A stretch of 64,000 nt of DNA from Rhizobiaceae bacterium (GTDB lineage: Bacteria; Pseudomonadota; Alphaproteobacteria; Rhizobiales; Rhizobiaceae), in contig JBBDJD010000007.1 of assembly GCA_040880025.1 (NCBI GenBank), positions 64,035 through 128,034 of the forward strand. Reading direction: 5' to 3'. Positions 3,195 through 51,999 of the stretch are shown piece after piece. The first letter of the stretch is position 1. Each line of letters opens with the position of its first letter. A program made the position numbers and the translations under genes. The notes below the pieces were generated by a model that saw only the letters and a program-made list of their open reading frames with translations, was not told the DNA's origin and did not search any database.

Positions 3195-4952
3195 ATGAGC
3201 ATCCCCGTTGTCGAAATCACCGGCCTGTCAAAGCATTACGGAGAAGGCGCGGCCCGCACCGAGGTGCTGGAGAACGTCAACCTGAAGGTGGCGGACGGCG
3301 AGTTCATCGCCATCGTCGGCTTCTCCGGCTCGGGCAAGACGACGTTGATCTCGACGCTTGCCGGGCTGATCAAGCCCGATCTGGGCGGCGTCATCTATAT
3401 GGGCAAGGAGATCGACGGTCCGGGTTCCGAACGCGGCGTCGTGTTCCAGTCCTATTCGCTGATGCCGTGGCTGTCGGTGGAGGGCAATGTCGCGCTGGCC
3501 GTCGACAGCGTGTTCCGCGGCAAGCCGCGTGCCGAGCGCCGGGCGATCGTCGACAAATATATCGAGATGGTTGGTCTGGCCCACGCCCGCGACCGCAAGC
3601 CGGCGGAGCTTTCCGGAGGCATGCGCCAGCGCGTCGCCGTTGCCCGCGCACTCGCCATGCAGCCGCAGGTGCTGCTGTTGGACGAACCGTTGTCGGCGCT
3701 GGACGCGCTCACCCGCGCCAAGCTGCAGGACGAATTCGCGGCGATCTGCGAGAAGGAAAAGAAGACCATCATCCTCATCACCAATGACGTGGATGAGGCG
3801 ATCCTGCTCGCCGACCGCATCATTCCGCTCACGCCCGGGCCCAAAGCCACGCTGGGACGCGAGTTCACGGTGGATCTCCCGCGGCCACGCGATCGCGGCG
3901 ACATGAACCACGACGAGGCTTTCATCGGCCTGCGCGCGGCGATCACGCAATATCTGATGGATATGGGCGCTGAGCGCGGCGACGACTCTGAGAGCGATAT
4001 CAGGCTTCCCGATATCGTGCCGTTCACGCGAAAGGACGAGCTCCCGCAGGCCTATGTGAAGGCCGCGCAGGCGGTGACGGACGATCGCTTCCTCGAGTTC
4101 AGCCAGTTGAGCAAAGTCTACCCTACGCCCAAGGGCCCTCTGACCGTCGTCGACGGTTTCGAGCTGAAGATGAAAAAGGGCGAGTTCACCACGCTGATCG
4201 GACATTCTGGCTGCGGAAAATCGACGGTCCTGTCGATGGTTGCGGGTCTCAATCCGATCAGCGATGGCGCCATCATTCTCGACGGCAAGCACATCACCCA
4301 GGCTGGTCCCGACCGCGCCGTTGTATTCCAGGCGCCTTCGCTGATGCCTTGGCTGACGGCTTACGACAATGTCGCGCTGGGCGTCGACCGGGTCTATCCC
4401 GACGCGACCGCCAAGGAGCGGGCGGAGGTCGTCGAATACTACCTGTCCCGCGTCGGCCTGGCCGATTCAATGCACAAGCCGGCGGCGGACCTGTCCAACG
4501 GCATGAAACAGCGCGTCGGCATCGCCCGCGCCTTCTCGCTTTCGCCGAAGCTGCTGCTGCTCGACGAACCCTTCGGCATGCTCGACAGCCTGACGCGCTG
4601 GGAGCTCCAGGACGTGCTGATGGATGTGTGGACGCGCACCAAGGTGACGGCGATCTGCGTCACGCATGATGTCGACGAGGCGATCCTTCTGGCGGACCGG
4701 GTGGTGATGATGTCGAACGGGCCCAACGCGCGTATCGGCAACATCATGGAAGTCGATCTGCAGCGGCCGCGCTCGCGCAAGGCGCTGCTCGCGCACCCCG
4801 ACTACTACGCCTATCGCGAGGAGCTGCTCGACTTCCTCGAGGCCTATGAGGGCGGGGCAAATCCCGGTCCCGAACAGCTGAAGTCCATCCAGCAAAAACG
4901 TCAAAAGCGGCTCGCGCGGCAGGGACGCGCCGCGCTGGAAGCCGCGGAGTGA
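3195..4952 (+). CDS. Nitrate ABC transporter ATP-binding protein with two fused NBDs (NrtC/NrtD-like)
   Basis: Two Walker A motifs ([16 protein letters not shown]) and two Walker B motifs (LLLDEP); signatures LSGGM and LSNGM. Confidence 0.92.
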
Positions 4953-44838: not shown

Positions 44839-45855
44839 TCACTCCTCGGTCAGCACAAACTCCAGATAGAGATTGCGCTGGAGGATGGAGTGGTTGTCGT
44901 CCGAGACGATCGAAACGATCAGCGCGCCGTCTTCGCGGCGCCAGACATCCAGTCCCTCCATATTGTCGATCTGGTAGGACATGTCGGCCTCCAGCAGCAC
45001 CGGGCCGTCGGCAATGGAGCCGGGACGGATGGTGCCGGCCTCGATGCGCCGCAGCCGCATGGCCACGCCGGTTGCCATCGAAAAACGGCGCTCCAGCAAA
45101 AGCAGATCGCCGTCGGGCAGGAACGCGCCGTCGGTGATGTCGAAATCGCCTGACCGCGCGACCTTGAAGATGCCCTTCAGCGGACCCTCCAGAATAGCGG
45201 CGAAAGTGTTGCCGTCGCCGTCTATCGAACGCTCGGTGACGGCAATGCGCGCGCCGGCGAGCGGGCCGTTGTCGGGCGCGCGGGCAATCGCCTCGAAGCC
45301 GCGGTTGTTCCTCAGCTCCGCACGCGGGACAAGATAGTCGAGCGTGCCGGTCTGGCCTTTCATCCCGTCGGGTTCGAGCGCGAATTCGCGGATCTTGTGC
45401 TCGCGCTCGAAGCTGACGGTCGCCGTGTCGCCCGAAATGGAAAGCCCCTCGGCATCTGTTTCCCATTTGCCATCGATCGGTTCGCCGGCCTCGTCCACCA
45501 TCGGCATCATGCGGAATTCCGTCATGCCGACGGGACCCAACTCCGCGTCGCGCTCGATTTGACCGAAGAACCAGAAGCCGGTGTCGGTGACGCCGACGAA
45601 ATTTTCGCCGGCGTCCAGAAAGCGGATCGCCGACATGGCGCCGAAGTCGCCGGGGCCGGAGAGGCTCAGGCCGCCGACGAATTCGAGCGGACCGAAGCGG
45701 GTCGTGTCGCGGCCGATATGGAAGTTTTCGATGCGGCGGGCATCGAGGGTTATGTCCTCGACGAGCGAGGATTGCGCATACGAAGCGCCCACGGTTGCCC
45801 AGAGGGTCAGGAATAGCCCAGGCAGGGCGCGGCCGATGCGCTGGAGGATGCTCAG
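44839..45855 (-). CDS. Esterase-like activity of phytase family protein
   Basis: GAMSAI, VTDTG, DAEGL, EGLD.W...IVSDDN beta-propeller motifs; start either GTG 45792 or CTG 45855. Confidence 0.85.
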
Positions 45856-47744
45856 CTTGCCCGCCTCATGTTGCGCGCGCCGTTCCGCGCGGCCTCCTCG
45901 CCGAACAGAGCGGCGAGCTGCTCGGTCATGGCGCCGGCCAGTTCCTCGGCGTCGACGATGGTGACGGCGCGGCGGTAATAACGTGTCACGTCATGGCCGA
46001 TGCCGATGGCGATCAGCTCGACCGGCGAGCGGGTTTCGATCAGGTCGATCACGGCGCGCAAATGGCGCTCGAGATAGTTGCCGGGGTTGACCGAAAGCGT
46101 GGAATCGTCGACCGGCGCGCCGTCGGAAATCATCATCAGTATGCGGCGCTGCTCGGGCCGCGCGATGAGGCGCTGATGCGCCCACAAAAGCGCCTCGCCG
46201 TCGATGTTTTCCTTCAGCAGACCCTCGCGCATCATCAGGCCGAGATTGCGCCTGGCGCGGCGCCAGGGCGTATCGGCCGATTTGTAGATGATGTGGCGCA
46301 GATCGTTGAGCCGGCCGGGGCTGGCGGGCTTGCCGTCCTTCAGCCATTTCTCGCGCGACTGGCCGCCCTTCCATGCGCGGGTGGTGAAGCCCAGGATCTC
46401 GACCGAGACGCCGCAACGCTCCAGCGTGCGGGCCAGGATGTCGGCGCAGGTGGCCGCCACCGTGATCGGGCGGCCGCGCATGGAGCCGGAGTTGTCGAGC
46501 AGCAGCGTGACGACCGTGTCGCGGAAACTGGTGTCGCGCTCCTGCTTGTAGGAGAGCGGCTGCATGGGGTCGAGGATGATGCGCACCAGCCGCGCGGGGT
46601 CGAGATAGCCTTCCTCGAGGTCGAAGTCCCAGGAACGATTCTGCTGCGCCATCAGGCGGCGCTGCAGCCGGTTGGCGAGCCGGCCGACGACGCCGGCCAG
46701 ATTGGCGAGCTGCTTGTCGAGGAAGGCGCGCAGGCGGTCGAGCTCCTCCTGATCGCACAGTTCCTCAGCCCCCACCGTCTCGTCGAAGCCGGTGGTAAAG
46801 ACCTTGTAGTCGAGCTGGCGGGGCAGGTCGCCCAGCGGATCGTTGGGCCGCCTGGCCTCGCCTGGCGTCTCGGCGTCGAGATCGTCGTCAGCCATCTCGT
46901 CGGCATCGGCGTCGACGGCTTCGCTCTCGCCGGTCTGCTCCTGATCGGCGTCGGCGTCCGATTCCTCGGCCTGGCTGTCGTCGGAGCCGGAATCGGTCTC
47001 GCCGGTTTCCTCGTTCTGCTCCTCGCCCTCGGGCTGGTCCTCGCTGTCCTGATCGTCCTCCTCCGACTGGTCGTCGTCGCCCAGCTCGTCCGCCATCTCC
47101 ATGGAAACGAGCATGTCGCGCACCATGCGGGCGAAGGCGTCCTGGTCGTCGAGCCTGTCGAGCAGGCCGTCGAGATCGGCGCCAGCCTTTTCCTCGACGA
47201 AGTCGCGCCACAGGCCGACGAGCTTTTTGCCGCTGGCGGGCGCATCGCGGCCGGTGAGGCGCTGGCGAACCATCAGCGCGACGGCTTCCTCCAGCGGCGC
47301 GTCGGCCCTGTCGGCGACTTCGGCAAGGTTGGCCTTGGCGTATTTGTCTTCCAGCATCTGGGCCAGATTGTCGGAGACGCCGCGCATGGAGCGGGCGCCG
47401 ATCGCCTCGACGCGCGCCTGCTCGACAGCGTCATAGATGGCGCGGGCCTGACGGCCGTCGGGCGCCAGACGCGAGTGCAGCCTGGAATCATGGCAGGCGC
47501 GGCGCAGCGCCATGGAATCGCCCAGCCCTCGCGTGATGCCGAGGTCGGTCGCCGTCGGCTTGCGCGGCGGTTCGGGCATGCGGGCATGAGAACCGGTCAG
47601 CGCCGGCTTGTCCTTGGCGAAGGTGACCTCGAAGTCACGGTCGCCGGCAATCGCGCGCATGCAGGCGGCGACCGAACGCTTGAACAGGTCGCTGTCGGCG
47701 TTAGTCTTCGGTCTTCCGCGCGTGTTATCGCCGGGACCGGCCAT
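45852..47744 (-). CDS. cobT: Aerobic cobaltochelatase subunit CobT
   Basis: MAGPGDN start, acidic linker, v[35 protein letters not shown]. Confidence 0.97.
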
Positions 47745-48525
47745 TTTGGGCACTTTCTTTCGACAGATTAGCCGCTTCAACCAATTCGACATACTTTTTA
47801 CTACGGCGGTAAAAATACTTCGGCATTACGCGTACGTATAATTTAGGGGCCAGCAGCCGCAGAATTTGGAGCGTAAGCAAAGCAGTCAAGCAAAAAAATA
47901 TAATAAATCCAATTACATTTTTGTATTTTACGTAATTATAACCTAAAAAATCTCCTATTATACGATCATTTTCATTTTCGCCAGCGCCTACGTCTAGTAA
48001 CCGGCCATCTTGTAGCACCCTAAAGAGTGCCGTGGACTCCATATCAGTTATCATGGTTACGTTAAAATAATCCCCAGGGTCCAATTCACTTCGACTTAAA
48101 ACATGAACATTTGTTAGTTTGGTTGCTCTATACTTCTCCGGCAGGTTGGATGGCATCCACGCAATGGCTAATTGGTTCTCTTGGGAAAACTGTACGTTTT
48201 TTATTCGCCTTTGTGTTTCATTTACTACGGTCACGTCGGTTATTCTAAGTTGGCCAATTTCGACCGTTGAAATTTCCCCCTCTGATATGGGTGCTGCTTT
48301 GTCGATACGTTCATCGTCATTCTCGCTGTTTTGGCGATCCGTATTGAAGGTACTCCTATCGCCGAGATAGGACGCTAGGCAGACAGGGCAGTTGATTATT
48401 GTGTCGCGGCGATAAACAGAAGCACTTGCCTCATCGGTGCCTATTGGAAAAAAAAAATAAGTTGCCGCTGCAACTACAACGCCGCCTATTACCGATATAA
48501 GCACACCTTTTAGGATATCAGACAT
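47725..48525 (-). CDS. AT-rich two-TM ORFan (266 aa) inserted between cobS and cobT
   Basis: Start overlaps cobS stop (TAATG); N- and C-terminal hydrophobic helices; CPVC motif; 47881-47940 has only 12 G+C in 60 nt. Confidence 0.75.
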
Positions 48526-49514
48526 TAACTCAGGACCACGTTGGCCGCGCTTTCGGGCAGTTCCTCGCCGAAGGCGCGCTGGTAGAACTCGGCCACGATC
48601 GGGCGCTCGAGCTCGTCGCACTTGTTGAGGAAGGTCAGCCGGAAAGCAAAGCCGACATCGCCGAAAATCTCGGCGTTTTCCGCCCACATGATGACGGTGC
48701 GCGGGCTCATGACGGTGGAGAGGTCGCCATTGACGAAAGCCGAGCGCGTCATGTCGGCGACGCGGACCATCTTGTTGACGATCTCGCGGCCCTCCGCCGT
48801 GCGGTAGTGCTTGGCCTTGCCCAGCACGATCTCGACTTCCTGATCGTGCGGCAGATAGTTGAGCGTGGTGACGATGGACCAGCGGTCCATCTGCGCCTGG
48901 TTGATCTGCTGGGTGCCATGATAGAGGCCAGTGGTGTCGCCCAAGCCCACAGTATTGGCGGTGGCGAAAATGCGGAAAGCCGGATGCGGACGAATGACGC
49001 GGCTCTGGTCGAGCAGCGTCAGGCGGCCGGACGATTCCAGCACGCGCTGGATGACGAACATCACGTCGGGGCGTCCGGCGTCGTATTCGTCAAACACCAG
49101 GGCGACATTGTGCTGGTAGGCCCAGGGCAGGATGCCGTCGCGGAACTCGGTGACCTGCATGCCGTCCTTGACCACGATGGCGTCCTTGCCGACGAGGTCG
49201 ATGCGGCTGACATGGCTGTCGAGATTGATGCGCACGCAGGGCCAGTTGAGACGCGCCGCCACCTGCTCGATATGGGTCGATTTGCCGGTGCCGTGATAGC
49301 CCGACACCATGACGCGGCGGTTGAAGGCGAAGCCCGACAGGATGGCGAGCGTCGTCTGCCTGTCGAAAAGGTAGTCGGGATCGAAATCCGGGACATAGGA
49401 ATCGGCGGCGGAATAGGCCGGCACGATCATGTCGGACTCGAAGCCGAACGTGTCCATTACCGAGACGGTGGTGTCGGGGAGGTTGGCGATGTCGCGGTCG
49501 ACCTTGTTCATCAT
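48525..49514 (-). CDS. cobS: Aerobic cobaltochelatase subunit CobS (AAA+)
   Basis: [37 protein letters not shown]. Confidence 0.98.
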
Positions 49515-49640
49515 GACTCCAGAGGCGGAACGGCAATCCGCCGGTATTTCCTACAATGGTTCGGAGGCGTGTCTAGTGCGAGATGCGCCAAGATGGAAGC
49601 GGTCGAACCGTCATCAAGGCGTGTCCCGCGCTTCCGCGCT

Positions 49641-50258
49641 CTAGCACAGGCCGGCCTGCTTGAGCACCCGGTAGGCCTGCAGCACGTCGCGGAAGCGTTC
49701 TTCCGAACTCCGGTCGCCGCCATTGGCGTCCGGATGGTGCTGTTTTACCAGTTCCTTATAGCGCGCCTTGATGTCTTCGCCAGTCGCCTTGTGGCTGAGG
49801 CCCAGCGTTTCCATGGCCTTGGCCTCAAGCGTCTTGAGCTTGCGCTCGCGCGGCTGGGCGCGGCCTCGATTGCCGGTGAACAGGCCGAACGGATCGCCGA
49901 CGCGGCCGTGGTAGGCGGCACTTCCCGAACGCGCGGTGGAGAAGTCGGGCGTGTAATGCGCCTGGCCGCCCGAACCCATCTTCCAGGTCGGTCGGTGGCC
50001 GGTCAGCGCCTCTCTCTGGAAACGGGCGACGTCGTCATTGGCCAATCCGGAGAAGTAGTTGAAATTCTTGTTGTATTCGCGGACGTGATTGAAGCAGAAG
50101 TGAAAGTACTCGCCCTCGCGCATGCGCCCCACCGGCGCGCGATGGGTGCCGGCCTCCGCGCAACCGTCCCACTGGCACTGCGGCGCGGCCGAGCGCGCCT
50201 TCGCCTCGGGATCGGGGCGGATGCGGATCTTCTCGAAATATTTCGAATAGGGCTTCAT
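49641..50258 (-). CDS. DnaJ-domain protein
   Basis: CQWDGC...FC..HVREYN N-terminus; C-terminal J domain with HPD. Confidence 0.92.
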   Translation of the reverse strand: MKPYSKYFEKIRIRPDPEAKARSAAPQCQWDGCAEAGTHRAPVGRMREGEYFHFCFNHVREYNKNFNYFSGLANDDVARFQREALTGHRPTWKMGSGGQAHYTPDFSTARSGSAAYHGRVGDPFGLFTGNRGRAQPRERKLKTLEAKAMETLGLSHKATGEDIKARYKELVKQHHPDANGGDRSSEERFRDVLQAYRVLKQAGLC

Positions 50259-50396
50259 GCGGCCTGCCTTGGACTCAGGTCGATTATGGGTGCTTATGCC
50301 TGCGATACAAGAATTGACATTCGGGCAATGATAGCCCTAACGCCTGAATCGCACGTGAATGGGAAAACAGGCGCAATATGGTGCGCGGAGGCCGAT

Positions 50397-50699
50397 ATGT
50401 CCATCTCGACGGCGATCGAAAAGAAGCTGACGGAGGCGCTGAAGCCGGAGCGGCTGGCGGTGGTCAACGAAAGCCACCTGCATGCCGGGCATCATCACGT
50501 CGAATCAAGCCATCATGCGACCTTCGACGGTGGCGGCGAGACGCATTTCCGCATCCGCGTCGTTTCACCCGTGTTCGAGGGCATGAGCCGCATCGAGCGG
50601 CACCGCAGGGTGAACGAGCTTTTGGCGGAGGAACTTGCCGCGGGCGTGCACGCGCTGGCCATCGAACCGGCGGCGCCGGGCGAACCGACGCGCTGGTAG
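50397..50699 (+). CDS. bolA: BolA family protein
   Basis: NESHLHAGH, ETHFRI, RIERHR, VHALAI. Confidence 0.95.
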   Translation: MSISTAIEKKLTEALKPERLAVVNESHLHAGHHHVESSHHATFDGGGETHFRIRVVSPVFEGMSRIERHRRVNELLAEELAAGVHALAIEPAAPGEPTRW

Positions 50700-50702
50700 G
50701 GT

Positions 50703-51005
50703 TCAGCGCTTCAGCAGATCGTCCCATTCGGGGCTGTGGCGGGTGAATTCATCGGCCACGAACCAGCAGGTCGGCGTGATTTGATCGCCATTGGCGCGGG
50801 CATCCGCAATCAGGCGCTCGACCATCCGCTCGGCAACGCCCTGCTCGCGGAATGGTACGGGCACGAAGGTTGAAGCGGCGATGATGTGACCGGGTCCTGC
50901 GCGCATGGTTGTCAGCCGGGATTCAGTGCCGTCCGGCATCTCGACCGAATATTTCCCGCGCGGGCCGTCCTGCTCGAAACGGATGTCCAGTGGGTCGACT
51001 GTCAT
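50703..51005 (-). CDS. Small GNAT acetyltransferase (YjdJ-like), copy 2
   Basis: TFVPVPFREQGVA...PTCWFV. Confidence 0.8.
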   Translation of the reverse strand: MTVDPLDIRFEQDGPRGKYSVEMPDGTESRLTTMRAGPGHIIAASTFVPVPFREQGVAERMVERLIADARANGDQITPTCWFVADEFTRHSPEWDDLLKR

Positions 51006-51061
51006 CTCTATCTCCTTCGCATCCGATGTAGGCAGCGCCGTTATCCGAAGAATGTGCGTGA

Positions 51062-51370
51062 TCAGGACTTCGGATGTCCGCTCAGAACATCCTGCCACTC
51101 TGTGTGGCGGCGGAACTGGGCGGCGGCGAAGGGGCAAAGCGGCATGATCTTCTTGCCCGATTTGCGGGCGTCGTCGACGGCGCGCGCGACGAGCCTGGCT
51201 CCGACGCCCTGGCCGCGAAAGACATCCGGGACCTCGGTATGGTCGATGATGACCAGATGCTCGCCGGCCTTGGAGAAGGTCATCTCGGCTGCGGCGCCAT
51301 TCGGGCCGCGATGCAGGTAGCGTCCCTTCGAGCCGGTTTCTTCCAGTTCGATCGTAAATTCCTCGCTCAT
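51062..51370 (-). CDS. Small GNAT acetyltransferase (YjdJ-like), copy 1
   Basis: IDHTEVPDVFRGQGVG...PLCPFA. Confidence 0.88.
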   Translation of the reverse strand: MSEEFTIELEETGSKGRYLHRGPNGAAAEMTFSKAGEHLVIIDHTEVPDVFRGQGVGARLVARAVDDARKSGKKIMPLCPFAAAQFRRHTEWQDVLSGHPKS

Positions 51371-51999
51371 GTCGTCTGCTCCGCCGTGTTGGAGGCATAG
51401 GTCGAAAGCAACGTCCGCGCGCTGTCGATCTCGCCCTTGCGTATCTCGTGTCCGCCAGAATGCCATTCAAGGCCGACCGGCGCGCCGGCGGCGCGCAGCG
51501 AAGCTTCCAGGCGCGACGTCAGCTCCGGGGGGCAGATCGGGTCGGCGCGGCCGGCCGTGATCAGCACCCTGGTCTCTAGACCGCCTTCGATCTTCGGCGT
51601 GAACGGAATCAGCGGATGCATCAGCACCGCTGCGTCGAACAGGCCGGGATTGGCGAACATTGCCGAGGCGAGAATATTGGCGCCGTTGGAATAGCCGAGG
51701 CCGAGCACGGAGGAGGGCTTCGCGGCCTCGACATGGGCATGGACGAAAGCGGCCATCTTCCCGGTCGCGCGAGCAAGATCGTCCATGTCGTAGACGCCCT
51801 CGGCGGCGCGGCGGAAATAGCGCGCGGCACCATGCTCGGAAACGTCGCCGCGCGGGGCAACGAGGCCGGCGCCGGGCAACAGCGCCTGGCCGAGGTCCCA
51901 GAACTGATTCTCGTCGCCGCCGGTGCCGTGAAACAGGAACAACAAAGGCTTGTCCGGGCCGTTGTCGAACCGATGGTGAACATAGGCATCCATGGTCAT
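51367..51999 (-). CDS. Alpha/beta hydrolase (MhqD/YodD-like carboxylesterase)
   Basis: FHGTGGDE, GYSNGANI, GGHE. Confidence 0.88.
   Translation of the reverse strand: MTMDAYVHHRFDNGPDKPLLFLFHGTGGDENQFWDLGQALLPGAGLVAPRGDVSEHGAARYFRRAAEGVYDMDDLARATGKMAAFVHAHVEAAKPSSVLGLGYSNGANILASAMFANPGLFDAAVLMHPLIPFTPKIEGGLETRVLITAGRADPICPPELTSRLEASLRAAGAPVGLEWHSGGHEIRKGEIDSARTLLSTYASNTAEQTT

Follow-up and report, generated by a model that had tools for sequence, protein, structure and literature searches.

An AT-rich, promoterless membrane-protein gene, probably acquired horizontally, in the cobS-cobT spacer of a Rhizobiaceae bacterium

Introduction

Phage morons are extra genes of deviant composition that lie between two conserved operon genes; they reside in prophages and mostly come with a promoter and terminator of their own. 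Bacterial chromosomes contain integration hotspots flanked by core genes, among them variable slots of the defense-island style, and prophages encode membrane proteins for superinfection exclusion or abortive infection, of which P22 SieA, T4 Imm and HK97 gp15 are examples. In alphaproteobacteria, MucR acts as a xenogeneic silencer of AT-rich accessory genes (PMC9410896, PMC8857273). The present analysis concerns a 64,000-nucleotide stretch of DNA (the window; positions below are those of this stretch) from a Rhizobiaceae bacterium (assembly GCA_040880025.1, contig JBBDJD010000007.1, positions 64,035 to 128,034 of the forward strand), in which the cobaltochelatase genes cobS and cobT are separated by an AT-rich open reading frame (ORF) of 266 amino acids (aa), hereafter gene X (protein P0001). 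We think it probable, though well short of certain, that X is functional, lacks a promoter and was acquired horizontally, by precise insertion into the short cobS-cobT spacer, and that a homologue in another genus, gene X2 (proteins P0007 and P0008), represents a separate acquisition in the same slot.

The comparison with the described systems is one of partial likeness. X resembles a moron in being a lone gene of deviant GC content between conserved, cotranscribed genes, with no mobility gene and with an empty site in relatives, but it lies in a chromosomal housekeeping operon, has no promoter-like site and uses the stop and start signals of its neighbors. As in a chromosomal hotspot, the accessory genes in a single interval between core genes differ from lineage to lineage (GFA, HicA/HicB, secreted proteins, X); unlike a hotspot, the cobS-cobT slot is internal to an operon, spans 2 to 17 nt when empty, takes one or two small genes, has neither integrase nor tRNA, and contains two distant homologues in the identical position. 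The HicAB modules (type II toxin-antitoxin) that occupy this slot in 5 of 115 genomes, in other genera, show that selfish or mobile small modules settle there, although they differ from X in being unrelated in sequence, cytoplasmic, composed of two genes and near the host in GC content. X also shares with the genes silenced by MucR the character of an AT-rich foreign gene in a GC-rich genome of the Rhizobiaceae type with several other AT-rich islets; in contrast, silencing of X would be costly, as it lies within a housekeeping operon and expression of the gene downstream is needed. The likeness to SieA, Imm and gp15 is one of type only (small size, a place in the membrane with part of the protein in the periplasm, a gene that stands alone and is foreign in composition, and a rare and patchy distribution), whereas sequence, profile and fold similarity to phage or defense families, as well as a prophage context, are lacking.

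A foreign segment in place of the cobS-cobT spacer

Between 47750 and 48520 the GC content drops from 0.65-0.71 to 0.365-0.475, and the stretch 47881-47940 holds 12 G+C in 60 nt, exactly the compositional drop that had been reported in an earlier note on this DNA, made from the letters alone. The 780-nt insert as a whole has a GC content of 0.424, against 0.630 for the genome (4.19 Mb), which places it among the five lowest-GC windows of that size in the genome (fraction 1e-4), and the GC content at third codon positions (GC3) is 0.41 in X versus 0.875 in cobT. A promoter scan detected no sigma-70-like promoter in the insert, and no Rfam RNA family was found in 45000-51500.

X is tied to both neighbors by its codons. 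As a direct reading of the sequence confirms, the ATG of X (48525-48523) overlaps the TAA stop codon of cobS (48527-48525), and its own TAA (47727-47725) ends 20 nt within cobT, as the note had described; the start of CobT, MAGPGDNTR, is the same in all relatives. In 7 of 8 same-genus genomes the cobS-cobT spacer measures 6 to 14 nt. The flanks of the insert have about 87 to 93% DNA identity to those of genus relatives, undiminished as far as the final cobS codon and the initial cobT codon (the CobS proteins are 91 to 96% identical), and since flank identity is normal right up to the junctions, the foreign DNA must start and stop within a few bases of the gene boundaries. X is missing from 60 relatives, 11 same-genus species among them, and a family profile found no member in 401 genomes of the family or 401 of the order. 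The vertical conservation that the note had named as the finding that would overturn its view is thus not what these genomes contain, and its picture of a clean insertion, in which DNA of foreign composition without flanking repeats uses host signals at both ends, is supported.

A distant homologue in the same spacer of another genus

Word-indexed searches of 5.8e9 protein clusters recovered X alone. An exhaustive phmmer search over 1.84e9 representative proteins returned one full-length, collinear match, P0007, a protein of 270 aa that is 21% identical to X (E = 6e-4 against the whole library, pairwise E = 2e-10); P0008 is an allele of P0007 (93% identical), and P0001, P0007 and P0008 are the only members of the family known in the two collections. 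X and P0007 have in common a first transmembrane helix (TM1) with the motif GGxxVAAxTYFFFP, a loop of roughly 170 to 175 residues, a second helix (TM2) and a KKxVE tail. Two NCBI assemblies, one of them titled as an 'uncultured Mesorhizobium sp.' metagenome-assembled genome and the other with a 726-kb contig, and nine Logan contigs of other runs have X2 between cobS and cobT. Its junctions are as tight as those of X: the TAG of cobS is followed directly by the ATG of X2, and the stop codon of X2 overlaps the start of cobT as TAATG. Its GC content is 0.40 against 0.67 in the flanks, and its GC3 0.36-0.39 against 0.88. X and X2 thus agree in their collinear architecture, in their place in the cobS/cobT slot with abutting or overlapping codons, and in a GC3 below 0.45 in hosts with a GC3 of about 0.88. 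The homology is real, because it is negligibly likely that a spurious match among 1.8e9 proteins would fall in the same slot. The label of ORFan given to X in the note therefore needs qualification, as there is a distant homologue (P0007/P0008) in the same slot of another genus; otherwise it stands, with no further relative in the 1.84e9 representatives. X is one of two known lineages of a new, very rare family of membrane proteins. X2 is missing from 150 other genomes of its host genus, a scan of GTDB genomes returned only the X2 host, and a scan of JGI metagenomes found no member of the family. Two weak genome matches were seen, one (G389) in a polysaccharide locus and the other (G615) with E = 1e-3 over 53 residues.

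The two alleles of X2 permit an estimate of selection. The ratio of nonsynonymous to synonymous divergence (dN/dS) is 0.117 for X2 (dS 0.28) and 0.115 for the adjacent cobT (dS 0.40), with zero replacements in TM1; the value for X2, like that for cobT, therefore indicates that the family is protein coding and under purifying selection. Within its lineage, X2 appears from the same comparison to be co-inherited with its neighbors.

These data also bear on whether X could be a nonfunctional remnant or an artefact, either junk DNA that is open by chance or an assembly chimera, a notion that we find hardly credible. It is true that the window allele is known from one genome and that slippage at a run of ten T residues (T10, described below) could inactivate it. 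However, the chance of an open frame of 266 codons at the composition of X is about 4e-8 (0 of 20000 shuffles yielded one), and the homologue has the same architecture under purifying selection. An independent re-assembly of run SRR27977663 by Logan contains a contig of 2235 nt that matches 46639-48873 with 100% identity and crosses both junctions, which makes a chimera, the other outcome by which the note would have been overturned, unlikely, and for X2 the same arrangement recurs in nine more independent contigs.

The shared slot can be explained either by two acquisitions or by one ancient insertion. Between the window and the X2 host, identity amounts to 89% for CobS, 77% for CobT, 72% for the DnaJ-like protein, 62% for the phytase-like protein and 21 to 23% for X. 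The dS values are 0.48 for cobS and 0.63 for cobT, while the synonymous sites of X are saturated (pS 0.77), an estimate that depends on an alignment at 23% identity and to that extent weakens the case for separate entries. The dN is 1.05 for X versus 0.167 for cobT, and the X/cobT ratio of dN is 0.7 within the X2 lineage and 6.3 between the lineages. A tree of CobT places the window within the clade of its genus (95*), as sister to a same-genus genome whose gap is 7 nt, and the X2 hosts as a pair (100*) in a separate clade (95*), where the gaps of the other members measure 2 to 12, 65 and 251 nt. On these sequence comparisons, we favor two independent acquisitions, through which deeply diverged members of the family reached one and the same spacer, because vertical descent would need (i) silent saturation confined to X, (ii) a GC3 of about 0.4 lasting beside 0.88 and (iii) at least ten base-exact deletions. 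An ancient resident that entered once in a common ancestor, was inherited vertically with very fast divergence and was precisely lost in nearly all descendants would account for the single slot of both family members; the two host clades are fairly close in the CobT tree, X2 has traveled with cobT in its lineage (dS 0.28 versus 0.40), and no insertion machinery is visible. We nevertheless consider it unlikely: the saturation of X stands against flanking dS values of 0.48-0.63, the dN ratio jumps from 0.7 to 6.3 between the two levels of comparison, a GC3 of 0.36-0.41 would need to have lasted in hosts at 0.88, and each of the ten or more independent deletions would have to restore a spacer of 2 to 14 nt.

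Three further observations concern the X2 hosts. In one Logan contig (L059, from DRR438454), X2 is identical to that of the host locus L056, and 13 differences are clustered in a 60-nt stretch of cobT close to the end of the contig (1029-1087); this cluster may be a strain mosaic or assembly noise. Upstream of cobS, L056 also carries a PhdYeFM/PIN toxin-antitoxin pair next to bolA (3195-3826), at a distance of about 2 kb, and a phage-type integrase at about 5.8 kb, which is about 6 kb from X2; the window lacks both at the equivalent location.

The cobS-cobT spacer as a harbor for small genes

The slot was surveyed in 115 genomes of the family with adjacent cobS and cobT (loci L014-L049 and L062-L141). 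The spacer measured 35 nt or less in 76 genomes, 36 to 169 nt in 15 and 170 nt or more in 24, and it spans 2 to 17 nt when empty. The statement in the note that the two genes usually lie adjacent has to be tempered by the 24 genomes in which accessory genes lie between them. The occupants include a GFA-family protein of roughly 115 aa (Pfam PF04828, E = 5e-14) in 6 of the 115 genomes, a signal-peptide protein of roughly 155 aa in at least 9, HicA/HicB-like modules in 5 (below the Pfam cutoffs, with E values of 1e-5 and 3e-3), other small secreted or transmembrane proteins, and three larger inserts of 1.6 to 1.9 kb. No similarity was found between X and the other occupants, whose GC deficit relative to the flanks is 0 to 0.16, against 0.22 to 0.27 for X and X2.

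The cobS-cobT spacer is a recurrent, operon-internal harbor for small accessory genes in this family, and because unrelated genes fill it in 24 of 115 genomes, the preference for this site is not peculiar to X. What is peculiar to X is the arrival in the same slot of two distant homologues of extreme foreign composition. In one same-genus genome (G006, locus L021, G006:C13:76050-80150), the slot contains a 936-nt insert of normal GC content with two tandem signal-peptide paralogues of about 153 aa, and single-copy relatives of these genes occupy the slot in at least eight other genera. Even the strongly reduced genomes of the family (G016, G064, G122 and G015; 1.1 to 2.0 Mb) retain CobS (E = 1e-177 to 1e-189) with an adjacent cobT, which hints at a housekeeping role of CobS/CobT beyond B12 synthesis; a search of the literature for the essentiality of CobS/CobT gave nothing usable.

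Protein architecture and possible function

The features of the locus are collected in Table 1. X is laid out as a 6-residue N terminus, TM1, an acidic loop of roughly 170 residues, TM2 and a tail of 39 residues, so that the order given in the note (helix, CPVC, beta-rich domain, helix, basic tail) holds in the hydropathy and charge analysis. Because of its hydropathy and the distribution of its charges, X is predicted to be an inner-membrane protein of N-in/C-in topology, the middle domain being periplasmic. Conservation is highest in TM1: between G14 and G29, 12 residues are invariant in X, P0007 and P0008.

Table 1. Coordinates of gene X, its neighbors and the parts of its product
Feature	Position	Strand	Description
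cobS	48525..49514	minus	329 aa; AAA+ subunit of aerobic cobaltochelatase; TIGR01650, E = 9.4e-207; Pfam CobS_N and AAA_5
TAATG junction	48523..48527	minus	cobS stop and X start share one base; presumed translational-coupling junction; direct sequence reading
Gene X (P0001)	47725..48525	minus	Intact 266-aa ORF; two-pass membrane protein; new family
TM1	48445..48507	minus	Residues about 7-27; hydropathy; family motif GGxxVAAxTYFFFP
C46-P-V-C49	48379..48390	minus	Not conserved in the family; homologue reads GLPSII there
Predicted periplasmic domain	47920..48444	minus	Residues 28-202; net charge -10; beta-rich; positive-inside rule and hydropathy
TM2	47845..47919	minus	Residues about 203-227; hydropathy 2.56; AlphaFold2 (AF2) helix, pLDDT 66-84
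Basic tail, predicted cytoplasmic	47728..47844	minus	Residues 228-266 (39 residues); net charge +8; conserved KKxVE motif
AT-rich foreign segment	47745..48524		780 nt, in place of the 6-14-nt cobS-cobT spacer of the genus
X 3' end/cobT start overlap	47725..47744	minus	The C-terminal NGRSRR* of X (6 codons) is read from the opening 20 nt of cobT in a different frame
cobT	45852..47744	minus	630 aa; VWA subunit of cobaltochelatase; TIGR01651, 1104 bits; Pfam CobT and CobT_C

Several family assignments were tried and rejected. The DUF11/DUF7507 Ig-like repeats had shown a weak resemblance to X residues 91-160, in which phmmer had summed weak repeat matches and the pairwise E values were 4e-4 to 5e-3 over 70 aa; an hhalign comparison of the family profile with the repeat profile gave a probability of 0.15%. 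A holin (less than 150 aa, two to four close transmembrane helices, charged C terminus) is matched by the charged tail alone, since X has 266 aa and 170 residues between its helices. A CxxC oxidoreductase of the thioredoxin/DsbA type does not fit homologues that are without any cysteine, nor was there a Pfam, NCBIfam or PDB match to one. A tblastn search of X against 50,697 phages gave only noise, as did a search of plasmids.

The cysteine pair was the ground on which the note had suggested a redox or metal function, and a periplasmic thiol-redox or metal-binding protein would indeed be compatible with the position of C46-P-V-C49 just past TM1, on the predicted periplasmic side. The homologues, on the other hand, have no cysteine, with GLPSII at the position of the motif, and there was no match to a thioredoxin, DsbA or metal-binding family; because the motif is not conserved and X2 is without cysteine, such a role is unsupported, and we rate it as very improbable.

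Nor do we expect X to be a lineage-specific accessory subunit of the CobS-CobT machine, such as a membrane tether or regulator that was recruited through cotranslation, a role that is only slightly less improbable than the last. The tight coupling of X to both genes, at start and stop and in both lineages, would suit it, as would the selection on X2, which is as strong as that on cobT, and the presence of cobN elsewhere in the genome. However, more than 400 relatives with 76 to 96% identical CobS lack X, the slot also hosts functionally unrelated HicAB, GFA and secreted proteins, the composition of X is foreign, and only about 40 cytoplasmic residues would be available for contact.

The combination of an almost invariant TM1 with a fast-diverging acidic domain on the predicted periplasmic side suggests a core for membrane interaction or oligomerization and an outward specificity domain. 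An invariant helix with a fast-diverging outer domain is a pattern typical of envelope proteins of the exclusion or defense type. X may thus be a cell-envelope accessory of that type which acts via its periplasmic domain, and membrane defense was also among the functions that the note had suggested; this is a tentative guess, more apt to be wrong than right, and it is a guess because there is no match to a fold, family, defense or phage protein.

Expression within the operon and origin of the insert

If X is the promoterless, horizontally acquired gene that we favor, it would be transcribed from the operon promoter as part of the cobS-cobT operon, and its translation would be coupled to that of cobS at the TAATG overlap. 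As X stops 20 nt past the ATG of cobT, we propose that cobT is re-initiated after termination of X at that point; alternatively, cobT could initiate from the purine-rich sequence GAAAGAAAG, 9 to 17 nt upstream. A promoterless gene would obtain free expression from the slot, and an imprecise deletion would harm cobS or cobT, hence positional selection for a permissive and protected site is the most economical reading and fits best.

One stretch of X itself deserves attention in this context. A T10 run in the coding strand of X (48448-48457, minus strand) lies in the codons for YFFFP (TAT TTT TTT TTT C). No A/T homopolymer of the genome is longer, and just two runs of 9 or more occur in 4.19 Mb; the run is not conserved in the X2 homologue. 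T9 or T11 would truncate X to 27 or 31 aa, and the run is a possible slippage site.

Two very distant family members in the same spacer are hard to obtain by chance, and therefore point to either an unrecognized route of targeting or recombination or strong positional selection. The former is taken up in a more speculative version of the same reading, which we regard as rather doubtful: the X family would consist of operon lodgers, promoterless AT-rich membrane-protein genes that home to the cobS/cobT junction by a recombinase-independent or trans-acting mechanism and there enjoy free expression and protection from loss, the T10 run providing an on/off switch in the window copy.

Known vehicles were considered and rejected on several grounds: (i) for an integron gene cassette, the terminal repeats are missing, the stop codon of X inside cobT leaves no room for attC, and instead of intI and an attI array, the neighbors within about 4 kb are cobS, cobT, a DnaJ-like gene, BolA and a phytase-like gene around a single insert; (ii) for an insertion sequence, a miniature inverted-repeat transposable element or a transposon, there is no terminal inverted repeat or target-site duplication, X is the sole ORF of the insert and there is no second copy in the genome; (iii) for a phage vector carrying cobS-X-cobT, phage CobS is at most 36% identical to that of the host, and the one Rhizobium phage locus examined, in RHph_Y2_17_1, has cobT followed by cobS with nothing in between. 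In that phage (L146, MN988548.1, 63636-71526), the two genes lie next to those of a sigma factor and a DNA polymerase III alpha subunit; large Rhizobium phages carry their own cobT and cobS.

A number of results weigh against the reading of a precisely inserted, functional foreign gene and have to be set beside it. The insertion has left no signature: no terminal direct or inverted repeats were found at or near 47745 and 48524, in line with the note, which had seen no flanking repeats; no donor-like recombination tracts were detected in the flanks at either 90-nt or single-base resolution; and no recombinase was found that would explain two distant homologues in one spacer. Public data contain so few members of the family that no donor pool is visible. 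The function is equally bare of support from comparison, as X has no match in Pfam at E ≤ 1, nothing usable among NCBIfam and PDB profiles, and 0 families in PADLOC-DB v2 at E ≤ 1, while PHROGs gave two unrelated weak matches for P0001 (E = 5e-4 and 1e-3) and none below 0.26 for P0007, with no consistent family. AlphaFold2 was not confident (pLDDT 46 with the single sequence and 41 with an alignment of three), and no fold was obtained. Finally, a terminator scan placed a weak terminator-like hairpin of 6 bp directly before T10 inside X, and hairpin and run together could lower read-through; the folding of this segment was no better than that of shuffles (z = -1.1).

If the reading is true, the locus is a recurrent and precise landing site for foreign genes in a conserved housekeeping operon, with a spacer of 2 to 17 nt and without integrase, repeat or tRNA, and the X family is new, extremely rare and under purifying selection. 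The cobS-cobT junction of the Rhizobiaceae would then be a natural 'safe harbor' that could serve strain engineering.

Other AT-rich islets of the host genome

X has no similarity to the other AT-rich ORFans of its host genome. Another membrane ORFan that is AT-rich (GC 0.43) is encoded at G000:C18:41470-42306; it has 278 aa (273 with the database start) and is unique among the 5.8e9 protein clusters. Its layout resembles that of X, with a transmembrane helix, a beta-rich domain and transmembrane helices, and its start is overlapped by the stop codon of a gene that, judged by eye from its sequence, resembles one for NrdJ (class II ribonucleotide reductase). Three more AT-rich single-gene islets (GC 0.43-0.46) were noted, at G000:C13:376999-378114, C13:593652-594650 and C14:68946-70925. 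The first encodes a protein with an N-terminal transmembrane helix and the second a signal-peptide protein, neither with a Pfam match, and the third encodes a 659-aa protein whose N terminus, by eye, resembles that of an OLD/AAA-type ATPase.

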